Source: Candidatus Omnitrophota bacterium (lineage in GTDB: Bacteria > Omnitrophota > Gorgyraeia > Duberdicusellales > 4484-171). From it: a stretch of 64,000 nt of DNA. This document shows, in pieces, positions 5,190 through 62,415 of the stretch. How positions within the stretch are numbered: the stretch's first letter is position 1; every line of letters begins with the position of its first letter. Position numbers and translations under genes: made by a program. The stretch lies in the NCBI GenBank assembly GCA_016935525.1, contig JAFGQU010000007.1, positions 9,057-73,056 of the forward strand, read 5' to 3'. The notes beneath the pieces are model-generated. The model was not told the origin of the DNA. It made no database searches and worked only from the letters and a program-made list of their open reading frames with translations.

Positions 5190-7592
5190 ATGAAGTTAAC
5201 ATCGTTATTGAACACACGTATCGTTATCCTCGACGGCGCGACCGGAACAGAACTCCAGAAGTCGGGTATGCCTCAAGGGGTGGCTCCCGAGAAGTGGGTA
5301 TTAGAAAATCCCCGGATCCTTACCCGGGTGGCCTGCGACTACCGTGATGCCGGTAGTGACATCGTCTATACCTGCACGTTCGGTGCGAACCGTTATAAAC
5401 TCGCCCAGTATAAGATCAGTGATGTGCAAAAGATCAATACCCGGATCGCCCGGATCACCCGCCGGGCTTTAGGAAAAAACACCCTTATTGCCGGGGATAT
5501 CGGCCCGACCGGTAAATTTATCGAACCGTTTGGTCCGGTTCCTTTTGATGAAGCGGTTGCCGCCTTTAAAGAACAGATAAAAGGGCTGGTTGCCGGCGGA
5601 GTAGATCTTTTGGTGATCGAGACCATGATGGATATTCAGGAAGCCCGCGCCGCTCTGATTGCGGCAAGAGAAGTAACCAATATGTTCACCATGGTTACGA
5701 TGACCTATGAACGTGACGGCCGTACGCTCAACGGGACCGATCCGGTTACGGCCCTGGTGACCTTGCAGAGTCTGGGGGCACATGCCGTAGGCTGTAATTG
5801 TTCTACGGGGCCCGGTGATATGGTGCGGTTTATCGCACAGATGAAACCGTACGCGCGCGTACCGCTTCTTGCCAAACCGAACGCGGGAATGCCGCGCCTG
5901 CAAAAAGGAAAAACTGTCTTTGACATGAGCCCGAAAGAATTTTCCGGTTATGCCGGTGAATTTGCAAAGGCCGGTATAAACTTGATGGGAGGATGTTGCG
6001 GGACTTCTCCGGAATATATCCGGGAACTGAAAAAGCAGTTACGTAACAAAAAACCGCAAACCCCGCGCCGGTTTTTTTTAAGCGCATTAAGTTCTTCACG
6101 GACGCACGTGATCATTGAAAAAGATTCCCCGTTGATCATCATCGGTGAATGTATTAATCCTACCGGTAAGAAGTCATTACAGAAAGAGTTACGTGAAAAA
6201 AAGACGGCTCTCCTGCGTCAGTTAGCATCGGAGCAGGTCCGCCACGGCGCGGACATGCTGGATGTAAACGTCGGCGCCTCCGGTGTCGATGAGGCCGAGA
6301 TGTTAAAAGAAGCGATAAAGGTCCTTGCGGTAAATACTACCGTACCGCTTGTCATCGATTCTTCGGATATCCGGGCAATAGCGGATGCTCTTAAACTTTA
6401 TCCGGGCCGGGCGCTTGTAAATTCGATTTCGGGAGAAAAAGCGAAACTGAAAAAGATGTTGCCGCTCATCAAAAAATACGGAGCGATGGCTATCGTTTTG
6501 CCGCTTACCGATAAAGGGGTCCCTCATACTTGTCTTAAACGTAAAAAGGCCGTCAATGAGATCTACCGGAAGGTGAAAAGAGCCGGCCTAGCTAAAGAAG
6601 ATATTGTCGTTGATGCCCTGGCTTTGACCGTATCTTCGGACCGGCAGGCGCCCGGGGAGACGCTTAACACGATCCGATGGTGTCATGATGAATTTGATGC
6701 CGCGACAGTCGTTGGCCTTTCTAATATTTCTTTCGGATTACCGAGAAGGTCTCAACTGAATTCGGCGTTTTTGGCAATGGCTTCTTCCTGCGGGTTGACT
6801 ATGGCGATAGCCAATCCTTTATCGGAAGGGCTGATGCACATGCGGCACTCATCGGATGTGCTTACCGGTAAAGATGATAAAGCCGTCCGGTTTATCCGGT
6901 ATGTTCAGGAGGAATCCGGGGGTACCTCCAGTAAATCTGCTGCGTTACCGGCGAGTCCCCAGGAACGGGTCTATACGGCGATCCTTGAAGGGAACCGCCA
7001 GGAGATAGAGCAGTATATCGGTGAGGCGCTTAAGGGCGGGATTGATGCCGAAAAAATCATGCAAGAGGGGATGGTCACCGCGATCAATACTGTGGGAGAA
7101 TTGTTTGATAAAAAAGAATATTTTCTCCCTCAACTTATTGCTTCGGCAGAAACGATGAAACAGGGGTTCGAGTTTTTGAAACCGCATTTAAAAAATACTC
7201 AAGGCCATCGCGAAAAGAGAAACGTGATCATGCTGGCAACGGTAAAAGGCGATATCCATGATATAGGTAAGAATATCGTCGCGCTTATGCTTGAGAATCA
7301 CGGGTTTCATGTCATAGATCTAGGAAAAGATGTTTCGGTCGAGAAGATCATCAATGAGATCAAAAAACATAAATCGCCGCTTATCGGGCTTTCGGCATTG
7401 ATGACGACGACTATGGTGAATATGCAGGATGTGGTCGATGCCGTACGGAAAGAAAGCTTAGATTGCCGGTTCATTGTAGGGGGGGCCGTGATTACCAAAT
7501 CGTTCGCCCATTCCCTTGGTGCTGAATATGCTGCCGACGGGGTGGCCGCGGTCAGGGTAGCTAAGAGTTTAAGTGCCAGAAAAACAGAATAA
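5190..7592 (+). CDS. metH: B12-dependent methionine synthase (Hcy-binding, pterin-binding and B12-binding domains; no activation domain)
   Basis: N-terminal homocysteine S-methyltransferase domain, pterin-binding region, B12 motif DIHDIGKNIV. Confidence 0.9.
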   Translation: MKLTSLLNTRIVILDGATGTELQKSGMPQGVAPEKWVLENPRILTRVACDYRDAGSDIVYTCTFGANRYKLAQYKISDVQKINTRIARITRRALGKNTLIAGDIGPTGKFIEPFGPVPFDEAVAAFKEQIKGLVAGGVDLLVIETMMDIQEARAALIAAREVTNMFTMVTMTYERDGRTLNGTDPVTALVTLQSLGAHAVGCNCSTGPGDMVRFIAQMKPYARVPLLAKPNAGMPRLQKGKTVFDMSPKEFSGYAGEFAKAGINLMGGCCGTSPEYIRELKKQLRNKKPQTPRRFFLSALSSSRTHVIIEKDSPLIIIGECINPTGKKSLQKELREKKTALLRQLASEQVRHGADMLDVNVGASGVDEAEMLKEAIKVLAVNTTVPLVIDSSDIRAIADALKLYPGRALVNSISGEKAKLKKMLPLIKKYGAMAIVLPLTDKGVPHTCLKRKKAVNEIYRKVKRAGLAKEDIVVDALALTVSSDRQAPGETLNTIRWCHDEFDAATVVGLSNISFGLPRRSQLNSAFLAMASSCGLTMAIANPLSEGLMHMRHSSDVLTGKDDKAVRFIRYVQEESGGTSSKSAALPASPQERVYTAILEGNRQEIEQYIGEALKGGIDAEKIMQEGMVTAINTVGELFDKKEYFLPQLIASAETMKQGFEFLKPHLKNTQGHREKRNVIMLATVKGDIHDIGKNIVALMLENHGFHVIDLGKDVSVEKIINEIKKHKSPLIGLSALMTTTMVNMQDVVDAVRKESLDCRFIVGGAVITKSFAHSLGAEYAADGVAAVRVAKSLSARKTE

Positions 7593-8007
7593 AGGTGGGA
7601 TCGTGAGTAAAAAGATATTAGTCGTTGAAGATGAAGACAGTATCCGTAACGTACTTGAGGTAAGATTGAAAAATTGCGGATTTGAAGTGGTGACTGCGGC
7701 TGACGGAGAAGACGGGTTGAATAAAGCCCGGGCCGAAAAACCGGACCTGATGATCCTTGATCTGGGGCTGCCTAAATTGCCGGGTGAAGAGGTCTGCCGC
7801 CAGTTACGTAATGAAGAAAATAATGTACCGATCATCATGCTTACCGCTAAGACCGAAGATGTCGACCGGGTAGTCGGTAAGGTCCTGGGGGCAAACTATT
7901 ATATGACAAAACCTTTTGAATGGACCGAACTTCTAAAGAAAATATATAAATATTTGGATATGGAAGAACAAGCTGAATCCGGCCCGGCACCTTCACCAGA
8001 GGCTTAA
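7573..8007 (+). CDS. single-domain response regulator (CheY-like receiver)
   Basis: LVVEDEDS...MILDLGLP...TAKTE...KPF receiver motifs. Confidence 0.8.
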   Translation: MPEKQNKGGIVSKKILVVEDEDSIRNVLEVRLKNCGFEVVTAADGEDGLNKARAEKPDLMILDLGLPKLPGEEVCRQLRNEENNVPIIMLTAKTEDVDRVVGKVLGANYYMTKPFEWTELLKKIYKYLDMEEQAESGPAPSPEA

Positions 8008-8012
8008 TCTTT

Positions 8013-9263
8013 ATGAATATGTATCTGGTCGTTATACTTAGTATTCTCATTGTGCATTATGGTCTTGATCTGATCGTCGAGATTTTAAATGTCCGGCATG
8101 TTTGTCTGGATGTCCCCCAGGAATTCAGAGGGTATTATGATGATGAGAAATATCGTCGTTCTCAGAAGTATCTGAAAGATCGTACGGTATTTTCCTTAGT
8201 GAGCAGCGGATTTTTTCTGGCGGTGACCATAGCGTTTATTCTTACAGGAGGATTTAACTGGATTGATCAGTGGGCCCGCGGTTTCGGACAGGGATCGATT
8301 GTGACTGGGCTTATTTTTGCCGCTGCTCTCTTTTTAGGGTTACGTATCCTTCATATTCCGTTTTCTCTCTACAGTACGTTTGTCATTGAAGAAAAATACG
8401 GGTTCAACCGTACGACAGCGAAAACTTTCGTGACCGATTTCATTAAAGATATCCTGCTTACCGCGGTTTTTGGTTCAGCGGTATTCATCGCAGTCGTCTG
8501 GTTCTTTGAAAGCACCGGACGGTGGGGCTGGCTTTATTGCTGGGGGTTTCTGGTCTTGTATGAGTTGTTTTACTATTTTATTTATCCGGTAGCGATATTA
8601 CCTTTATTTAACAAATTCATTCCGCTGGAAGAAGGAGAATTAAAGACTCAGATCGAAGAATACGCTCGTGACCAGCGGTTCGCTTTAGCCGGTATTTTTA
8701 CCATGGATGGGTCGCGCCGTTCGGCAAAAAGCAACGCGTTTTTCACGGGTTTTGGAAAATTCCGACGCATCGCTTTATTCGATACCCTGATCAAACAGCA
8801 TACGACTGAAGAACTTGTCTCGGTGTTAGCCCATGAGATCGGACATTACAAGAAAAAGCATATTTTAAAACACATCGGGCTATCGATTCTTTCGATGGGA
8901 TTGATGCTTTATGTCTTGTCTTTTTTGATAAATAATCCCGGACTTTTTTCCGCTTTCGCTATGGAACAATTTTCGGTGTATGCCAGTTTGTTTTTCTTCG
9001 GATTTTTGTATGCTCCGATCAGTTTTGTCCTGGGGATTATGACGATGGCGATTTCCCGGCGTCACGAATACCAGGCTGACCGATTCGCCGTGATGACCTA
9101 CAAAAAACCTCAGGCGATGATCGATGCGCTAAAAAAACTCACGGTCGATAACCTTTCGAACCTTACTCCGCATCCGGCGAAAGTATTTTTGGAATACAGC
9201 CATCCGCCGGTGCTGAAGAGGATAGAAGCAATAAAAAATATAAATATAGGAGAAATACAGTAG
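8013..9263 (+). CDS. M48 family (Ste24/HtpX-like) zinc metalloprotease, membrane
   Basis: multiple N-terminal TM segments, HEIGHYKKKH zinc motif, downstream EYQADRFA. Confidence 0.8.
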   Translation: MNMYLVVILSILIVHYGLDLIVEILNVRHVCLDVPQEFRGYYDDEKYRRSQKYLKDRTVFSLVSSGFFLAVTIAFILTGGFNWIDQWARGFGQGSIVTGLIFAAALFLGLRILHIPFSLYSTFVIEEKYGFNRTTAKTFVTDFIKDILLTAVFGSAVFIAVVWFFESTGRWGWLYCWGFLVLYELFYYFIYPVAILPLFNKFIPLEEGELKTQIEEYARDQRFALAGIFTMDGSRRSAKSNAFFTGFGKFRRIALFDTLIKQHTTEELVSVLAHEIGHYKKKHILKHIGLSILSMGLMLYVLSFLINNPGLFSAFAMEQFSVYASLFFFGFLYAPISFVLGIMTMAISRRHEYQADRFAVMTYKKPQAMIDALKKLTVDNLSNLTPHPAKVFLEYSHPPVLKRIEAIKNINIGEIQ

Positions 9264-10368: not shown

Positions 10369-11652
10369 CTATCCTTTTAATTCAGCTAATCTTTTTTCCG
10401 GAAGATTTAACCCGCCGATAATGGTATATACTCTCAGTGAATCACGGTCATCTTCGTACACGCCGCGGTGAATAGTCGCCTTGCCGGTGATTTCCGATAA
10501 CACATCAAACGCATAGTTGATTCGGTCCTGCAGGCCCGATACGTTGGCCATCAGTTTTTTCCCGCCCACGACGATACATCCGGCTACTTTCGCGGTCGAC
10601 AGATCGAACCCGCCGGCAAGTAATGTCTTTTCCAAATTGTTCTTTACGGCCCGGGAGATGGAATAGGTGTCGGTGATCTGTTTTACCTTGGTAATACCCA
10701 TGATCGCGCATCCGCCGGTTTCGATGATACTCTGGTAATCTACGGTGTCAAATGAAGTATATCGGCTTGATTGCGCGCTGAGTTTGTTGAATATATCAAA
10801 CAAACCGGAAACCGTACTGTTGATGGTCGGCCAGAACGATTTCACGGTAAGGCCCGGATACAATTTGTTGATCCTTTCGTTATCGATGATGATCAGCGGA
10901 GAAAGTTTTCCCGCCTCGGCAAGTTTACCGAGATCGTTTGCGATCTTATACGCGTTCTTGGCGACCAGAGGAGAACTGGCTTCCCCGATGGTCGGTAACG
11001 TCATGATCGCCCCTACGCTTTTGTCGGGATTGGCGATTCCATTGTGGCGGGCGTATTTCTTTGCCGTTTCGATCAGTTCCAGCACGCCTCCCGAACCGGT
11101 CCCGCCGCCGGCTCCGAAACATACCATGATATGTTTCACGCCGGACGCGAACAGTTTACGGATGGTGTGCAATATCTCCTGCTGATATTTTTGTGCCGCG
11201 TCTTTTCCACGAGCCATATCTTTTCCCGCGCCCATCTCGCCGATATCCATGAGGAACTTCTGGTTTTTAGGGATCTCTAAAAGATCGAGATCATGATGGG
11301 ACGTATTTACGGCAAGCACTTTACGGTAACCCAGATCATAAAAAGATTTGACCAGTCTTCCGCCGCATTGCCCGGCGCCGATCCAAGCAAATTGAGTCGA
11401 GCCTTGAGTAATATCGATAAGTCCGGCTTCTTCTTTTACCTGCGGTTCGTACTGTTCAAGATCGAGAGTAGGGATCGCGGCTTTTTTTGACGGTTTTTTT
11501 ACGGTTGTTTTTTTTGCCGGAGCTTTCTTTTTTGCTTTCGCTTTTACTTTTTTTACCGGTTTTTTCTTGGCAACTTTCTTCTTAGCGGTTTTCTTTGTCG
11601 CCTTTTTCTTGATAACCTTTTTCTTCGCGGCTTTGCGTTTTGTTTTCGCCAT
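10369..11652 (-). CDS. FtsZ/tubulin-superfamily GTPase with tubulin-type signatures and N-terminal Lys/Ala-rich tail
   Basis: AWIGAGQCGGR (T1 loop), GAGGGTGSGG (T4), IIDNERINKL and TSFDTVDYQSIIETGGCAIMG (T7-like) align to FtsZ; about 60 aa KKxAKK repeat tail at the N-terminus; GGAGG RBS. Confidence 0.8.
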   Translation of the reverse strand: MAKTKRKAAKKKVIKKKATKKTAKKKVAKKKPVKKVKAKAKKKAPAKKTTVKKPSKKAAIPTLDLEQYEPQVKEEAGLIDITQGSTQFAWIGAGQCGGRLVKSFYDLGYRKVLAVNTSHHDLDLLEIPKNQKFLMDIGEMGAGKDMARGKDAAQKYQQEILHTIRKLFASGVKHIMVCFGAGGGTGSGGVLELIETAKKYARHNGIANPDKSVGAIMTLPTIGEASSPLVAKNAYKIANDLGKLAEAGKLSPLIIIDNERINKLYPGLTVKSFWPTINSTVSGLFDIFNKLSAQSSRYTSFDTVDYQSIIETGGCAIMGITKVKQITDTYSISRAVKNNLEKTLLAGGFDLSTAKVAGCIVVGGKKLMANVSGLQDRINYAFDVLSEITGKATIHRGVYEDDRDSLRVYTIIGGLNLPEKRLAELKG

Positions 11653-17867: not shown

Positions 17868-17880
17868 TGCGTGCAGGGAA

Positions 17881-17920
17881 ATGAGCAATGTTCAATTAGC
17901 AATTAACATTTAGCAATGAG
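17881..17920. repeat. family D repeat (AGCAATGTTCAATTAGCAATTAwCATTTAGCAATGA) copy 1
   Basis: near-identical 40-nt core at 28531-28568. Confidence 0.6.
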
Positions 17921-18053
17921 AAGATCAATAAAAAGGATAATCTCTGATTTAAAGTAATAAATGCTAAATTTGTATTGCTCTGTATTATTCAGAGGATGAG
18001 TTAACTCCCGTGAGTCTTACGACAACGGGGGTAGGCAAAATGGATGTATTCTA

Positions 18054-18284
18054 ACCACAGAGGACACCGAGAACACTGAGGAGAGATGAGGGTTTTAAAT
18101 CTAAAGATATTTGGTTCCTGCCCATCGATACTCGATGGGTGTCTTTGCAAAAACCGCAAAAAACCGGAAAATCGAATTTTCCGGTTTCAGACGTTTTTGC
18201 AAGACACCGCGCTTTTAATTTATTAAAAGCGCGAAACCAAATACTCTGTCTATTATCTCTGTGTAACTCTGTGAGCTCTGTGGT
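18054..18284. mobile_element. 231-bp MITE-like element or structured RNA with conserved inverted termini (copy 1)
   Basis: termini ACCACAGAGGACACCGAGA ... TCTCTGTGTAACTCTGTGAGCTCTGTGGT are inverted repeats; second 231-bp copy at 32693-32923. Confidence 0.5.
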
Positions 18285-18343
18285 GAAGATTCCCTTGATG
18301 TGAATGCATCTTCCGAACCATATAATTGAACATTGAGATGGAA

Positions 18344-18368
18344 CGTGTGACCATGTGACTTTGTGACC
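18344..18368. repeat. family A half-element (3 TGTGAC octamers)
   Basis: GTGTGACCATGTGACTTTGTGACC. Confidence 0.5.
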
Positions 18369-18435
18369 TGCCGAAAGCATACGTATCTCGACATGTGTTG
18401 TATTAGATACGGTTTTTTGAGATAATACCTAATAT

Positions 18436-19617
18436 ATGGATAAAAAAATACTTATTGTTTCTCCGGACGAAAACTTAAGGGAAGTGCTCAATTTCTGTTT
18501 TGACGGATGGGGGTACGAGGTATTTTTACGTAATTGGGTCCATCACGACATTAAAGCGGTCAAAAAGGTCTCTCCCGATGTGATCGTAATGGATGTCTGT
18601 GCGGCAAAAAAAGGGCAACTTGAGATGTGCCGTCTTCTTAAAGACGATTTTACGACCGCGTTTATCCCGGTAATCACTTTGATCAATAAACGGCAGTTAC
18701 GTACGCAACTTTTGACGCTTAAACACGGAGTCGATGATTACCTGATCAAACCTCCCGATCCTCTCGATCTGCGGGTGCGGGTCGAGATGGCGCTGCGTCG
18801 GGCTCAATATAGCTATTATGCCAGTGCGCTTACAGGCCTTCCCGGAGGGAGGATCATCGAGGAGGTAGTCAATGAACGGTTCGCTCATAATCAGCCGTTT
18901 TCGTTCGGATACGTCGATATAGATAATTTTAAGTATTTCAATGATGTGTACGGATACCTGAAAGGTGACCGGGTGATCATGCAGACGGCATACATGTTAT
19001 ATAACGCGCTGAAACAGCATGGGAATAAAGAAGATTTTATCGGGCATATCGGCGGGGACGATTTTGTGTTTATTACTACCCCGGATCGGTACACAAAAGT
19101 ATGTCATGGGTTCATTACTCTTTTTGACCGGGTCATCCCGTTCCATTATTCTTTACGTGACCGCCGGCGCAGTTTTATCATCGCCCGGGACCGTACTCAC
19201 AAGATCAGACGCCAATCGCTTATGAGCGTGTCGGTAGCTGTGGTCAACCGGCTGGTACCGTCGGAGATCACTCACGTGATCCAGATCAATGAACGGGTCG
19301 CCGAGATCAAACATTATCTTAAAGGATTGGAAGGGAGCCATTACATGGCTGACCGTCGCAATACCGATATTCAAAAGACAGTCGCACCGGTCGGATCGGT
19401 CAAAGAACAGATGCCGGTGCTGTATAAACCGTTGGGCCAGATACTGCTTGATAGAGAGATGATTTCTCAGGAACAATTGGATGAGGCGTTACGCCTTCAC
19501 TGGAAACGCGGATTGATCCTGGGCGAAACCCTGAAAGAGCTGGGGTTCTTAAAAGAGAAAGAGTTACAGGAAGCGCTTAAGACCCAACAGTCCGATGTCT
19601 CGCGCCGGCCGGGATAA
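18436..19617 (+). CDS. REC - GGDEF (GGDDF variant) - MshEN-like c-di-GMP-binding domain fusion protein
   Basis: receiver with VIVMDV and IKP; ALTGLPGGR...GHIGGDDFVFI GGDEF core; C-terminal tandem PLGQILLDREMISQEQLDEALRLH and RGLILGETLKELGFLKEKELQEALKTQ MshEN motifs. Confidence 0.7.
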   Translation: MDKKILIVSPDENLREVLNFCFDGWGYEVFLRNWVHHDIKAVKKVSPDVIVMDVCAAKKGQLEMCRLLKDDFTTAFIPVITLINKRQLRTQLLTLKHGVDDYLIKPPDPLDLRVRVEMALRRAQYSYYASALTGLPGGRIIEEVVNERFAHNQPFSFGYVDIDNFKYFNDVYGYLKGDRVIMQTAYMLYNALKQHGNKEDFIGHIGGDDFVFITTPDRYTKVCHGFITLFDRVIPFHYSLRDRRRSFIIARDRTHKIRRQSLMSVSVAVVNRLVPSEITHVIQINERVAEIKHYLKGLEGSHYMADRRNTDIQKTVAPVGSVKEQMPVLYKPLGQILLDREMISQEQLDEALRLHWKRGLILGETLKELGFLKEKELQEALKTQQSDVSRRPG

Positions 19618-28523: not shown

Positions 28524-28530
28524 TTGAAAA

Positions 28531-28615
28531 TTAGCAATGTTCAATTAGCAATTATCATTTAGCAATGAAGAGTGGAATAAGGTGTTTTAAATTGCTAATT
28601 GTTAAATGCTAAATG
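28531..28615. repeat. family D repeat copy 2 with extra hairpin TTAGCAATTATCATTTAGCAA/TTGCTAATTGTTAAATGCTAA
   Basis: see 17881-17920. Confidence 0.6.
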
Positions 28616-37380: not shown

Positions 37381-37869
37381 ATGAATTGTGATATTTGTCA
37401 TAAAATAGTGGCGACCGTACATCTGACCGAGATCGTCAACGAAAAAGTGGTCGAATTGCATATCTGTCAGAAATGCGCGAAAGTAAAGACCGATGAATTG
37501 AAAAGTCAATTGAGCCTTTCTGACTTTTTAGGCGGGCTTGTCGATAAACCGGATACGAAAAAAACTGTTCCTACCGCGTGCCCTCTCTGCGGATTGACAT
37601 TCAACGAGTTCCGGGAGAAAGGCCGGTTAGGGTGCGGTGAATGTTACGGGGCGTTTAAAGACCAGATCTTGCCGCTGTTTCGTAAGATCCACGGTTCTAC
37701 CCAGCATGTCGGCAAGATCCCCGCGCATGTCGAGAAAAAGATTTTGATCGACCGGGAAAAAGAAGAACTGAAAAACCGGTTGGCCCGGGCGGTGAAACTC
37801 GAGGAGTACGAAGAAGCGGCCCGTATCCGGGATAAATTGAAACATATCCGGCAGAAAAGGAAAAGATAG
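37381..37869 (+). CDS. mcsA: McsA-like activator of protein arginine kinase (zinc fingers plus UVR motif)
   Basis: four CxxC pairs; C-terminal EYEEAARIRDKL UVR motif. Confidence 0.7.
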   Translation: MNCDICHKIVATVHLTEIVNEKVVELHICQKCAKVKTDELKSQLSLSDFLGGLVDKPDTKKTVPTACPLCGLTFNEFREKGRLGCGECYGAFKDQILPLFRKIHGSTQHVGKIPAHVEKKILIDREKEELKNRLARAVKLEEYEEAARIRDKLKHIRQKRKR

Positions 37870-38924
37870 TGTTCGAACATCTCCTGCATAATTCGGAAAG
37901 TTGGCTTAATGCCAAAGGGCCTGACTCCAAAATCGTGATTTCTTCACGCTTGAGGCTTGCCCGTAACCTTAAAGGCAGCGTCTTTTCCAACCGTTGCCGG
38001 TTGCCTCAGAAATATGAAGTGCTGGATGAGGTAAATGCTGCCGCAGGGAAGATCGAACAGTTGCATTCGGCTCATTTCGTAAAGATGGAAGAGATATCTC
38101 AGTTGGACCGCCAGTTTTTGCTGGAGAGGCATCTGATCAGCCAGGAACATACCCTTGCTCCGAAAGGGAAAGGGCTGATCGTGAGCGATGACGAGAAGAT
38201 ATCGATGATGGTAAACGAGGAAGACCATATCCGTCTACAGGTATTGGCTTCGGGATTTGATCTTGACAATATCTGGCAGAAGATAACTGCGCTTGACGAT
38301 GAATTATCCCGCCGTCTCGAATATGCGTTTATGCCGGATCTGGGGTATCTTACCGCCTGTCCTACGAATCTGGGGACGGCGCTGAGAGCGTCGTGCATGT
38401 TGCATCTGCCGGCGTTGGTATTCACTAAAAAGATCAATAAGATCCTTGAACTTTTAACAAAACTTTCGTTTACTGCGCGAGGTTTGTTCGGAGAGGGGAC
38501 GCAGGCGCTGGGGAATTTTTTTCAGGTATCCAATCAGGTCACGTTAGGGCTTTCTGAACCAGAACTTATCGAGAACCTTTCGGGAATAGTGAACCAGGTG
38601 AAAGATCAGGAACAGATCGCTCGTCAAAACCTTTTGAAGAAATATAAATTTACGATAGAAGACAGCGTGTGGCGAGCAGTGGGTATTCTTAAACATGCGC
38701 GGTTAATGGCGACCAAAGAGGCGCTTGCGCATCTTTCCATGTTGTATTTAGGCGTTGATTTAGGTATAATTAAAAAAATCAAGCCGGAAACGATAAATAA
38801 TCTGTTTATTAATATACAACCGGCACATTTACAAAAGATCGAACAGAGAGTTTTACGTGAACAGGAACGGGATTATATCAGAGCGCATCTCATTAGAAAT
38901 AATTTAGGAGGGAAATATGTTTAA
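37869..38924 (+). CDS. mcsB: protein arginine kinase McsB (ATP:guanido phosphotransferase)
   Basis: CPTNLGT phosphagen kinase signature. Confidence 0.8.
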
Positions 38925-41364
38925 TCGATTTACCGAACGAGCACGTAAAGTGCTGGTTTTAGCCAAAGAAGAAGCGAGGCGGTTCAATCATGATTATATC
39001 GGGACCGAACATATCCTGTTGGGCCTGGTGCGGGAAGGAGAAGGAGTCGCCTGCGCGGTGTTGCAGAATTTAGGGGCCGATCTTGACCGGTTGCGTATTG
39101 AGGTCGAGAAATTGATCACTCCCGGCAGTGTGACCGGCGTGGTCGGAGATATTCCTTTTACGCCCCGGGCCAAGAAAGCTCTGGAACTTGCCGCCGAAGA
39201 GGCCCGTACGCTCGGGCATAATTATATCGGGACCGAACATATCCTCCTGGGGCTTATCCGGGAAGGCGAAGGTCTGGCAATGCAGGTCCTTTACAGTCTG
39301 GGAGTGGATTTAGACAAAGTCCGTGAAGAAATAGCATCCCTCTTGGGCGGAACCCATTCGGCTCCCGGCGGCCAGCAGGGCGGGACGGCGCAAAGCGCTT
39401 CGAAGACTCCGGCGCTGGACTCTTTCGGCAGAAATCTGACCAAACTCGCCCGGGAAGGAAAACTTGACCCGGTAATCGGCCGGAGTGTAGAGATCGAACG
39501 GGTGATCCAGATCCTTTCCCGGCGGACTAAAAATAATCCGGTACTTTTAGGAGAAGCCGGGGTAGGAAAGACCGCGATCGTCGAAGGTCTTGCCCAGAGT
39601 ATCGTCAGCGGTAATGTCCCTGAAGTATTACGGAATAAACGGATCATCGGACTTGATCTTGCGCTTATGATCGCCGGGACGAAATACCGCGGACAGTTTG
39701 AAGAACGGATCAAAGCGGTAATGGAAGAGATCAAACGGTCAAAAGAAGTCATTATTTTTATCGATGAATTACATACATTAGTAGGCGCCGGCGCGGCTGA
39801 GGGGGCGATTGACGCGTCCAATATCCTTAAACCTTCGCTTTCCCGCGGAGAGATCCAGTGTATCGGAGCGACGACGCTGGATGAATACCGTAAACATATC
39901 GAAAAAGACGCGGCATTGGAAAGAAGGTTCCAGCCGATCTTTGTAGAACCGAGTACCGTGACCGAAACGGTAGAGATATTGAAAGGGTTACGGGACAAAT
40001 ATGAAGCGCATCACCGGGTAAAATTTACCGATGAAGCGTTGGAAGCCGCGGCGACATTATCCGACCGGTACGTCTCAGGCCGGTTTTTACCGGATAAGGC
40101 TATTGATTTGATCGATGAAGCCGGTGCCCGTTCGCGTCTTGCGGTATTGATTGTCCCGCCGGAAATCCAGGAGCTGGAGAACAAGATAAAGGAGATCATT
40201 AAAGAGAAAGAAGCGTTGATTAAACAACAGGATTTTGAAGCTGCGGCGCGTCTGCGGGACGAAGAAAAAAGCCTGCGGGTGAAACTGGAAAGTCTGCGCC
40301 GGGATTGGGGTAAAAAACGGGACCAGATCGTCCCTAACCTTTCGGTCGATGAAATCGCCAAACTCGTGTCTCAGATCACCGGTATCCCTATTTTCCGGTT
40401 GGAGGAGGCCGAGTCGGATAAATTACTTAAGATGGAAGAAAAGTTAAGCGAGAATGTGATCGGCCAGGAGGAAGCTCTGGCGGCGATTTCCCGAAGCGTC
40501 CGCCGGGCGAGGGCCGGAGTAAAAGAACCGCGCCGGCCTATCGGTTCGTTCATCTTCCTGGGGCCGACCGGTGTAGGAAAGACTTTGCTTGCCCGCGCGC
40601 TTACCGAATTCATGTTCGGCGATGAAGATGCGATGATCCAGCTCGATATGAGTGAATATATGGAAAAATTTAACGTGTCACGTCTGGTCGGCGCTCCTCC
40701 GGGATATGTCGGATACGAGGAAGGCGGACAGCTTACTGAACGGGTCCGTCGTCGTCCTTATTCGGTCATCCTGCTTGATGAGATCGAGAAAGCGCACCCG
40801 GATGTGTTCAATCTGCTGTTACAGATCTTTGAAGAAGGCCGGCTTACCGATAGTTTCGGGAGAAAAGTGGATTTTCGTAATACGATCATTATCATGACTT
40901 CTAACGTCGGCGCCGATATTATTCGTCAAAAAGGGTCGTTAGGGTTCATGGCGGTACAGGAAAATTCGATTAGTTATGATGAGATAAAAAAACATTTGAT
41001 GGAAGAAGTGAAAAAGACGTTTAAACCGGAATTCCTGAACCGGCTGGATGAGATCATTGTGTTTAAACCGCTGAATAAAGAATCATTAGGGAATATTGTC
41101 GATATCGAAATTAATTACGTCAATCAGCGTCTCAAAGACCAGGGGTTCTATGTAGAGTTGACTCCCGATGCGAAAGATTTTTTTACTGAACGGGGATTTG
41201 ATCCGGTGTTCGGGGCAAGGCCTCTTAAACGGGTCATTCAACGGTTTCTGGAAGATCCTCTGGCCGAAGATATTATCCGCGGCCGGTTTTCGGAAGAACT
41301 AAAAAAAGGGGGACAGGTCCGAGTAGTCGCTAAACGCAATAAAGACGAATTAATTTTTGAATGA
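38917..41364 (+). CDS. clpC: ATP-dependent Clp protease ATP-binding subunit ClpC
   Basis: two Clp N repeats, two AAA+ modules ([16 protein letters not shown]), UVR-like linker. Confidence 0.9.
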
Positions 41365-61616: not shown

Positions 61617-61774
61617 TCCTGAAAAATCTAATTCATAACATATTGCATTACAATTAGTTATATAATTTTACGCCAAATCTTGAAATTGTTTTCGAAATAT
61701 GGTATAGAAAAGGTGTAGCAAAATCTTGTTTTTAAAGAACTCTTGAAAATATGTTTTGAAAAAGGCAAACTAAG

Positions 61775-61994
61775 GGAAACCTTAGGGCGTCCGAAGATTC
61801 GGAATTCAACGTTGTGTTGATTTTGGGTCTCTTCGGACCCAGGAACCGTCCAGAACCGAATTTATTCTGGTTTTGCGGCTGGTTCTGGGCAAAGCTTAAG
61901 AGCCTAACGCCTTAAAAATTAAGGCAATGGTCGTCAGCTGCCAAAATGTAAGAAGAAGCAGGGATACCATAGCGTAAGGCTATGGTTTTTTTTT
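61775..61994 (+). ncRNA. candidate structured small RNA ending in a rho-independent terminator
   Basis: UUCG-type hairpin GGGTCTCTTCGGACCC, hairpin CCAGAACC..GGTTCTGG, terminator CCATAGCGTAAGGCTATGG followed by T9; no ORF. Confidence 0.35.
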
Positions 61995-62025: not shown

Positions 62026-62415
62026 TTGATGAGAAAGGTAACGTTATTTTTAGGCATACTTTTGTTACTTTCTCCTTTATCGCTCTGCGCTCAACAACAG
62101 ATGGTTGTTCCTGAGCAGCAGATGCAAAAACCGATGTATGAAGGAGGACCGGTAAGTAAGTTTGCCGACAGTGTGGCCGAGGTCGCTTTTTGTTGGGTTA
62201 ACGTTCCGCTCTCCATTGCCTATCATGCCGAAAAGATCGATCCGCTAAGCAGTGCTATAATCGGCAGCGCATCCGGTACGGCATTAGGGATAAGAGATGG
62301 GATAGAAGGCACACTTGGTGCTACATTCTGTATTGCCCCGCCGTATAAGAAACAGAAAACGGTAGTATCCCTTTTGAAAAAGTGGGACCGTGAGATACAA
62401 GAACGGTACTGGTAG
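62026..62415 (+). CDS. small secreted hypothetical protein
   Basis: signal peptide MMRKVTLFLGILLLLSPLSLCAQ; RBS GGGGG. Confidence 0.5.
   Translation: MMRKVTLFLGILLLLSPLSLCAQQQMVVPEQQMQKPMYEGGPVSKFADSVAEVAFCWVNVPLSIAYHAEKIDPLSSAIIGSASGTALGIRDGIEGTLGATFCIAPPYKKQKTVVSLLKKWDREIQERYW

Follow-up and report, generated by a model that had tools for sequence, protein, structure and literature searches.

A GGDDF-type GGDEF domain tethered to an MshEN_N tail: a conserved family of probable c-di-GMP signalling proteins in Omnitrophota

Why should one bacterial protein carry both a domain that resembles the enzyme making cyclic di-GMP (c-di-GMP) and a domain that resembles a receptor of the same molecule? 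The question is raised by a gene of a Candidatus Omnitrophota bacterium (contig JAFGQU010000007.1), located in a 64-kb stretch of DNA that was analysed as a whole and is called the window here (positions 9,057 to 73,056 of the contig). Its open reading frame (ORF; 18436-19617, plus strand) encodes 393 amino acids, which profile searches divide into three modules, namely a receiver-like domain (REC), a GGDEF domain with the variant motif GGDDF, and a tail related to the N-terminal half of the MshEN domain (MshEN_N). An earlier note on this DNA had proposed these three domains, and the reading is borne out, well above chance, by Response_reg, GGDEF and NF053729 matches above their cutoffs; the peptides quoted there all translate from the expected coordinates. 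The protein belongs to a conserved Omnitrophota family, whose members are most likely stand-alone c-di-GMP signalling proteins. As for its function, we tentatively propose a phosphorylation-independent cyclase whose tethered receptor would bind c-di-GMP and feed the product level back on the enzyme.

The architecture is widespread within one phylum. A homolog search returned more than 120 clusters that match the protein over its full length at 62–85% identity, the named ones nearly all from Candidatus Omnitrophota, and a scan of GTDB species representatives gave about 50 full-length loci in Omnitrophota. Since the architecture is common to these clusters and species representatives, a one-off fusion or an assembly artefact was rejected. 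The arrangement had been called unusual, but as a singular oddity this description is superseded by a conserved family that also has relatives with a full MshEN domain. In an alignment of 30 family members, to which all statements on family conservation refer, the mean column identity is 65%. The odd features of the family are, to judge from this alignment, under purifying selection, because they are invariant across the family and all 30 members match NF053729. Proteins of this type (the short form) are annotated only as "diguanylate cyclase" or "response regulator". Ten metagenome-assembled genome records labelled "Planctomycetia/Planctomycetales" or "Patescibacteria group" carry proteins 60–79% identical to the family, and these records are probably mislabelled Omnitrophota bins.

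The central module was recognized by Pfam GGDEF (PF00990; residues 131–214, 48.6 bits against a cutoff of 23.8) and by TIGR00254 (50.9 against 37.4 bits), both of which cover only the first half of the domain (profile positions 5–88 of 161 aligned). An AlphaFold2 (AF2) model shows the full, palm-like alpha/beta GGDEF topology, with predicted local distance difference test (pLDDT) values of 80–93 across the domain. Foldseek searches against isolated GGDEF domains aligned 175–190 columns with template modelling (TM) scores of 0.56–0.73 (target-normalised) and a probability of 1.0. PleD, DgcR and WspR took the top ranks in this search. These three proteins (DgcR from Leptospira) are the best matches in sequence and fold, and like the window protein they have an N-terminal receiver followed by GGDEF. 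However, the window protein lacks their acidic receiver pair, Thr/Ser switch residue and inhibitory RxxD site (I-site), has GGDDF instead of GG(D/E)EF, is divergent in the second half of the domain and carries the additional MshEN_N tail. The NCBIfam equivalog cutoffs are far from reached (PleD, 81 against 474; DgcR, 65 against 500).

The presence of GTP-binding residues, which the earlier note had left to be checked, was confirmed in a HMMER alignment to PleD, where D161, K166, N169 and D178 correspond to D327, K332, N335 and D344. Asp178 occupies the base-selecting position (S348 of GacA, D344 of PleD); therefore the domain is not Hypr-type, which has Ser there, and should prefer GTP. The active-site signature [G/A/S]G[D/E]E[F/Y] is departed from at the fourth position, which is Asp. 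At the I-site position, where PleD has R359-xx-D362, the sequence is NKED. Nine cyclase residues (D161, D163, K166, N169, D178, G206, G207, D208 and D209) are invariant in the family.

The GGDDF variant extends to a much wider clade. An exhaustive search of 1.84 billion representatives at E<=1e-30 gave at least 711 proteins, and residues were counted in the best 150 of the 711 representatives after alignment to the family hidden Markov model (HMM). About 95% of these 150 contain [GA]GDDF, and the substrate and metal residues are retained in nearly all of them (D161, D208 and K296 in 147 each, as well as N169 in 147; K166 and D209 in 146; D178 in 141), while Arg is found in the I-site column of just 6. 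K296 is a positional candidate for K442 of PleD, and a clear Arg counterpart was not found. The majority of the clade has the layout REC-GGDDF, a length of about 310 amino acids and a conserved end "...GS.Y..DRR". By these residues, the GGDDF domain is most likely a diguanylate cyclase of a distinct clade that would still condense two GTP to c-di-GMP. Catalysis is favoured, though unproven, because the motif Asp and the metal and base ligands are near-invariant in proteins most of which lack any other output domain.

Other layouts in the clade are transmembrane (TM)-HAMP-GGDDF, EAL-...-GGDDF, REC-GGDDF-EAL, REC-GGDDF-REC-HD-GYP, REC-GGDDF-GGEEF and REC-GGDDF-HATPase_c_2, with REC-GGDDF-EAL accounting for 8 of the 10 long members sampled. 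These diverse EAL, HD-GYP and HAMP fusions place the GGDDF module firmly in c-di-GMP signalling. Individual proteins include one with an RsbW-like HATPase_c_2 domain (P0139) and one with REC-HD-GYP (P0164), besides the frequent EAL fusions. In one chain (P0150), GGDDF stands together with a canonical, RxxD-bearing GGEEF domain, a tandem that hints at non-redundant roles of the two domain types.

The tail matches NCBIfam NF053729 (cyclic di-GMP-binding, MshE-related) at residues 332–384 with 51.0 bits against a cutoff of 38 (E=9e-14; 53 of 53 profile positions), and so passes the threshold of the MshE-motif profile on which the earlier reading of the C-terminus hung. Among PDB sequences, the tail by itself matches T. 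thermophilus PilF (E=6e-10) as well as V. cholerae MshE (5HTL; E=4e-6, MshE residues 6–61), and the family tail profile finds MshEN-type chains only (PilF, 2.7e-15; MshE, 4.8e-8). Using hhalign, the tail aligned with MshE residues 8–61 at 97.7% probability and 41% identity. A tail-only AF2 model (pLDDT 88.3) is a four-helix bundle. In the PDB, its fold is matched best by MshE with c-di-GMP (query TM 0.80) and by PilF's c-di-GMP-bound GSPII-B domain, the latter with a root-mean-square deviation of 0.7 A over 56 residues. MshE and GSPII-B are each 41% identical to the tail over the motif region, and MshE and PilF GSPII-B and GSPII-C likewise have 24+5+24 motifs, a four-helix bundle, LG pairs and Leu clusters.

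Two tandem 24-residue motifs had been described at the C-terminus. Both are present, but the string given for the second began three residues early: the true motif, ILGETLKELGFLKEKELQEALKTQ, follows the spacer WKRGL, so that the MshE Arg38 position is held by Ile361 and not by Arg358. The suggested profile check of MshEN/T2SSE_N was also half successful, with a match to NF053729 and none to PF05157 (MshEN_C, T2SSE_N1) even at E<=10, because PF05157 describes the MshEN_C half and the window protein, whose sequence stops 9 residues past motif II, does not have it. The tail thus reads as MshEN_N-only, a category recognised in Supplementary Table 4 of PMC5013675. Compared with MshE and PilF, this half domain is located at the C-terminus of a cyclase and not at the N-terminus of a secretion or pilus ATPase.

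Binding by MshEN domains rests on Leu clusters and on the backbone amides of the Gly in each LG pair (PMC5013675). Both LG pairs are kept in the tail (L333-G334 and L362-G363 for L10-G11 and L39-G40 of MshE), as are the six ligand-contacting Leu, and the clusters L25, L29, L54 and L58 of MshE correspond to L348, L352, L377 and L381. Across the family, P332, G334, L337, L348, L352, H355, W356 and G363 are invariant, and L333, L362, G370, L377, L381 and Q384 are at least 90% conserved. In motif II, Gln384 and Gly370 stand at the Q61 and G47 positions of MshE. The deviations are Pro332 for Arg9, Ile361 (Ile, Val or Leu in the family) for Arg38, an invariant His-Trp in place of Gln32 and of the residue that opens the spacer, and the lack of the turn Gly (G18) in motif I, where the window protein has Glu341 at a position variable in the family.

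We rejected the idea that the missing Arg (KPLG, LILG) means a dead binding site, since PilF GSPII-B, which has Lys167 and Leu196 in place of the two Arg, binds c-di-GMP at 6 nM, and GSPII-C is a binder with Pro335 as the first residue of a motif (PMC11731258). Hydrophobic replacement of Arg was even proposed to predict very high affinity (PMC11731258), and Ile361 is hydrophobic like Leu196 of GSPII-B. Pro332 lies outside the extended R/K/L consensus of PMC11731258 and within the relaxed search pattern of PMC5013675. In MshE, changes of Arg9 or Gln32 shifted the affinity less than five-fold, while G11L and G40I left poor, if any, binding (PMC5013675). The isolated MshEN_N(1–62) binds c-di-GMP with a dissociation constant of 0.35 uM (PMC5013675). 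Hence Pro and Ile for Arg have precedents in proven binders, while His at the Gln32 position and the missing Gly of motif I have none. Taking motif and model together, the tail likely binds c-di-GMP.

The receiver passes Pfam marginally (Response_reg, PF00072; residues 5–116, 33.7 bits against 30.2), and Pfam fails to call it in several family members. It has a (beta/alpha)5 fold that matches the receivers of PhoB and PleD. All family members keep the acceptor D53 (18592-18594), and at least 90% of them keep K105. As the earlier note had observed, SPDE replaces DDE, the acidic DD pair having given way to S9-P10 (18460-18465; S9 followed by S or P in the family); in addition, the conserved Thr/Ser switch position is Ile83. 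S9, D53 and a PPDPLDLR block are invariant in the family. In contrast, the receiver of the wider clade is canonical, with Asp at the two acidic-pair positions in 104 and 111 of the 150 representatives; 131 of them retain the acceptor Asp, 137 the Lys and 123 a Thr or Ser at the switch position. Ordinary phosphotransfer by the window protein is unlikely, because the Mg-binding pair and the switch residue, on which established receiver chemistry depends, are lost. Among the Pfam-annotated ORFs of the window, no histidine kinase is near the gene. The conserved FCFDGWGYEV segment and the alpha4-beta5-alpha5 region suggest a dimerisation or partner surface.

Between the last two modules, the linker (residues 309–331) has Y330 as its only conserved column in the family, and its pLDDT is below 50 at residues 312–315 and 322–329. 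The full-length AF2 model is of moderate confidence (pLDDT 73.6) and uninformative on inter-domain contacts.

How did the tail come to be joined to the cyclase? It is present in about 19 of the 150 clade representatives. Among the clade, 11 representatives of about 480 amino acids show the same motifs followed by MshEN_C, giving the architecture REC-GGDDF-MshEN (the long form), with PF05157 scores of 46–73 bits in the six that were scanned. At least one long-form protein comes from Omnitrophota. The long form (e.g. P0125, P0129 and P0134, from metagenomes) has the same module order as the short form, 36–43% identity and the same PLG...H/Q-W variant of motif I. However, the long form retains MshEN_C, usually Arg at the start of motif II and the turn Gly, and in some cases a canonical DD receiver pocket, all of which the short form lacks. 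In a neighbour-joining tree of the cyclase body alone, the tail-bearing proteins make up 17 of the 19 leaves of a common clade and are thus near-monophyletic. The likeliest history, as far as such a tree can suggest one, is that a GGDDF response regulator was fused with MshEN once, in an ancestor, and that the main Omnitrophota lineage later lost MshEN_C and the receiver's phosphorylation pocket.

The three Pfam domains of the long form are precomputed in a gene catalogue, and this form is very probably already listed in domain-architecture databases. The combination of GGDEF and MshEN is absent from the architecture table of Wang et al. 2016 (PMC5013675 Supplementary Table 4), and within the literature searched no paper naming a GGDEF-MshEN architecture was found. 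The parts are all of known kinds, and the fusion of enzyme and receptor in c-di-GMP signalling is not new as an idea.

These modules can be arranged in a working mechanism. The non-phosphorylated receiver would act as a dimerisation or partner-binding module through which the protein dimerises, and the GGDDF domain would make c-di-GMP from two GTP. On a flexible tether of about 23 residues, the 53-residue four-helix bundle of MshEN_N would, by its motif and fold, bind one c-di-GMP. Occupancy of the tail may then alter cyclase output, most probably by product inhibition, which would set a ceiling on c-di-GMP. The product could be read by PilZ-type receptors such as STAS-PilZ proteins and by a riboswitch such as the candidate in the window. 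A tethered receptor serving as product sensor would be the most economical mechanism, because the enzyme has no RxxD I-site. A self-sensing switch, one of the possibilities raised in the earlier note, appears compatible with all the evidence, including the missing I-site.

A further-reaching version of this proposal is doubtful. According to it, the family would be the core c-di-GMP source of Omnitrophota and a self-limiting homeostat, the Arg-free and possibly very-high-affinity tail would replace the I-site, and the GGDDF clade would be a distinct, competent class wrongly scored as degenerate.

Several observations weigh against the product-sensing cyclase, some of them touching the proposal as a whole and others favouring one of its rivals. 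Clade members lack the I-site with or without the tail, so the tail is not demonstrably a replacement for it. Around the gene, the window holds housekeeping genes, namely those of trehalose metabolism and glycolysis, greA, and genes encoding a TIM-barrel enzyme, a superoxide reductase, a GT2 glycosyltransferase and an Opp transporter. In the tail, the invariant His355 at the Gln32 position is shared with the non-binding GSPII-A domain of PilF, and the motif I turn Gly is missing. On the enzyme side, canonical GGEEF domains fail to align with the clade HMM beyond the GGDDF strand, and the phosphate-binding K442 and R446 on helix alpha4 of PleD have no sequence-aligned equivalents, the second half of the domain being divergent. 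EAL or HD-GYP fusions are common among clade members, and one member is joined to a canonical GGEEF domain. In such hybrids, a GGDEF-like domain is often a regulatory GTP sensor and not an enzyme.

One rival, which we regard as unlikely, keeps the active cyclase and makes the loaded tail its output: with c-di-GMP bound, the tail would recruit or regulate a partner (STAS-PilZ, or a pilus or secretion ATPase) in a covalent form of local signalling. E. coli offers the closest functional analogue, in which the cyclase DgcJ is physically paired with the MshEN-containing NfrB for local delivery of c-di-GMP (PMC8669469), and the fusion resembles this pair in one chain. STAS-PilZ genes recurrently adjoin the family gene and sometimes overlap it, and the invariant REC surface (FCFDGWGYEV, PPDPLDLR) suggests conserved partners. 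However, DgcJ and NfrB are two proteins and the MshEN domain there controls a glycosyltransferase, while the window protein is a single chain with no further output domain. STAS-PilZ neighbours are found at only about 15% of the loci and are absent from the window, and ligand-dependent recruitment of partners by MshEN_N alone is not known.

It is rather improbable that the cyclase is active and the tail no longer binds. In this case the bundle would serve for structure, dimerisation or docking, comparable to PilF GSPII-A and Xanthomonas XpsE, in which the fold is retained but binding is lost. The His at the Gln32 position is also found in GSPII-A (H33), where an ideal consensus is insufficient in the full-length domain, Ser at the Arg38 position abolished binding, and small deviations and helix capping remove it (PMC12002112). 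The loss of the motif I turn Gly in the Omnitrophota family and the missing MshEN_C half point the same way. Against this, the known non-binders have lost a critical Gly (G11V and G40L in XpsE, PMC5013675; A41 in GSPII-A, PMC12002112), while G334 and G363 are invariant in every sampled member of the family and the six ligand-facing Leu are all kept. Furthermore, proven binders have a hydrophobic residue or Pro for Arg (PMC11731258), and MshEN_N alone binds as well as the full domain (PMC5013675).

The earlier note had also considered a degenerate receptor-only protein, in which the GGDDF domain merely binds GTP (or c-di-GMP) and the protein is an effector or integrator acting by protein-protein contacts. 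We consider this quite improbable, and less likely than it first seemed. It would suit the frequent EAL and HD-GYP fusions and the single fusion with a canonical GGEEF domain bearing RxxD, a pattern typical of regulatory GGDEF-like domains. The fourth-position Glu, proposed as the cross-dimer catalytic base, is replaced by Asp here, and P. aeruginosa PA3258, a GGDDF-EAL protein, has no cyclase phenotype (PMC8835794). However, the clade consists mostly of TM-HAMP-GGDDF proteins and of REC-GGDDF proteins (about 310 amino acids) that contain no other output domain. GGDDF is the signature of a clade of at least 711 proteins, and the metal- and base-binding residues and both motif Asp are near-invariant (substrate residues in 141–147 of 150), which is more than expected for a mere binding module.

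Moreover, Geobacter GSU1937 shows that GGDDF can be catalytic. This TM-HAMP protein, which like the window protein has a GGDDF motif and no attached phosphodiesterase domain, contributes to in vivo levels of cyclic GMP-AMP (cGAMP). As part of a fusion, its GGDDF domain produced cGAMP as well as c-di-GMP, and mutation to GADDF abolished this activity (PMC8835794). This sole GGDDF activity on record is weak and comes from an artificial fusion. TM-HAMP-GGDDF proteins of similar architecture (L059, L060) belong to the clade of the window protein; GSU1937 itself is only a possible member, no Geobacter-named match having appeared in the top 120 when a Hypr-like TM-HAMP-GGDDF relative was the query. 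GSU1937 also differs in its Hypr Ser, its cGAMP product, its other input domain and its lack of an MshEN tail, where the window protein has Asp178 and the tail.

Finally, it is highly improbable that the clade makes another cyclic or linear dinucleotide whose synthesis c-di-GMP cross-regulates through the tail: the C-terminal half is too divergent for alignment with canonical GGDEF, in some members (L060, L059) the base-selecting residue is Ser or Asn, as it is in Hypr GGDEF cGAMP synthases, and one has both GGDDF and canonical GGEEF, but the window protein and 141 of the 150 representatives have the guanine-selecting Asp at the PleD D344 position, and the genomic partners PilZ, EAL and HD-GYP are all c-di-GMP-specific.

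Genome surveys sort GGDEF proteins into "active" and "degenerate" by the GG(D/E)EF motif. If the GGDDF clade, with at least 711 clusters and all alignable substrate residues conserved, consists of enzymes, the c-di-GMP inventories of many uncultured phyla are miscounted. A cyclase-MshEN fusion of the proposed kind would offer a simple example, open to testing, of a product being sensed by a tethered high-affinity receptor instead of an I-site, and would be the covalently linked equivalent of pairs that signal locally, such as DgcJ-NfrB. Omnitrophota are uncultured and poorly understood, and this protein is a strongly conserved regulator that could be expressed and assayed without culturing the organism.

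The neighbourhoods of about 55 loci were compared. A conserved operon that would reveal the output was sought and rejected, as the genes around the family gene vary and have mostly housekeeping roles, both in the window and in three other loci (L001, L084 and L086). Apart from small PilZ genes, the only recurrent neighbour is a STAS-PilZ gene (protein of 240–250 amino acids), found within about 3 kb at 8 of these loci in several arrangements. It lies directly downstream in L002/L003, L004 and L021, and within about 3 kb in L009, L018, L022 and L032, while in L085 it overlaps the 3' end of a long-form gene. Small stand-alone PilZ genes are nearby in five loci. For a single-copy gene in a genome of 1.5–2 Mb, the chance of lying within 6 kb is roughly 0.7% per genome. 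Because of the eight co-occurrences in several arrangements against this chance, the neighbourhoods indicate a functional link of the family gene to PilZ-type c-di-GMP receptors, although many of the loci are related. In the window itself, HMM and phmmer searches found no further GGDEF, MshEN-tail or PilZ gene; EAL and HD-GYP domains were looked for by Pfam in about 38 of some 60 ORFs of the window and were not found.

The features discussed above and below are collected in Table 1. The window holds a candidate c-di-GMP-I riboswitch, which scores just above the threshold and in which an insertion of 119 nt takes the place of the 19 nt expected by the model. The candidate is located upstream of an ORF (62026-62415, plus strand) encoding 129 amino acids with an N-terminal, signal-like hydrophobic segment. 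If the candidate is real, the organism uses c-di-GMP.

Table 1. Positions of the modules and motifs of the family gene, of a riboswitch candidate in the window, and of STAS-PilZ genes at other loci (numbered within each locus)
Feature	Position	Strand	Evidence or remark
REC-like / GGDDF / MshEN_N gene	18436..19617	+	ORF list; full-length homologs at 62-85% identity in Omnitrophota
Degenerate receiver (REC), residues 1-125	18436..18810	+	Pfam Response_reg
GGDDF-type GGDEF domain, residues 130-308, SALTGLPGG to ...GSHYMADRR (clade-typical end)	18823..19359	+	Pfam, TIGR00254, Foldseek, PleD alignment
NKED at the inhibitory RxxD I-site position (Arg missing)	19024..19035	+	Spacing to GGDDF and PleD R359-D362
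GGDDF active-site motif, residues 206-210	19051..19065	+	Invariant in family
Variable linker, residues 309-331, probably flexible	19360..19428	+	Conservation, pLDDT
MshEN_N motif I PLGQILLDREMISQEQLDEALRLH, residues 332-355	19429..19500	+	NF053729; aligned with MshE residues 9-32
Spacer WKRGL, five residues 356-360, W356 invariant	19501..19515	+	24+5+24 spacing as in MshEN (PMC5013675)
MshEN_N motif II ILGETLKELGFLKEKELQEALKTQ, residues 361-384	19516..19587	+	Aligned with MshE residues 38-61
c-di-GMP-I riboswitch candidate (RF01051)	61754-61945	+	37.5 bits against a gathering score of 35
STAS-PilZ gene, L002	11230-11952		
STAS-PilZ gene, L004	2640-3359		
STAS-PilZ gene, L021	7107-7823		
STAS-PilZ gene, L085	9439-10191		

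Upstream of the family gene is a 568-bp spacer. A regulatory RNA in this spacer was considered and rejected, since there is no Rfam match and relatives conserve no more than about 23 nt of it. A minus-strand ORF of 109 amino acids in the spacer (18051-18380) is probably spurious. The spacer also contains an imperfect inverted repeat (18138-18233). A 41-nt sequence occurs in two copies with 95% identity (17879-17919 and 28528-28568), each just 3' of the stop codon of one of two unrelated genes.

Elsewhere in the window, a stand-alone canonical receiver gene (7573-8007, plus strand; Response_reg, 97.7 bits) has no kinase nearby, and its start overlaps the end of a methionine-synthase-like gene (5190-7592). 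The only minus-strand gene within a long plus-strand run (10369-11652) encodes 427 amino acids with a Tubulin/FtsZ GTPase domain (48.6 bits) and a TubZ-like C-terminal domain (29.6 bits) by Pfam. At 37381-41364 (plus strand) a protein with a UVR motif is encoded together with an ATP:guanido phosphotransferase (McsB-like arginine kinase) and a ClpC-type AAA+ chaperone, a trio that we take to resemble the McsA-McsB-ClpC protein quality-control arrangement, best known from Firmicutes. At one locus outside the window (L086, 12340-17443), domains of a terminase large subunit and a portal protein adjoin a long-form gene, which suggests a prophage or phage-derived region.

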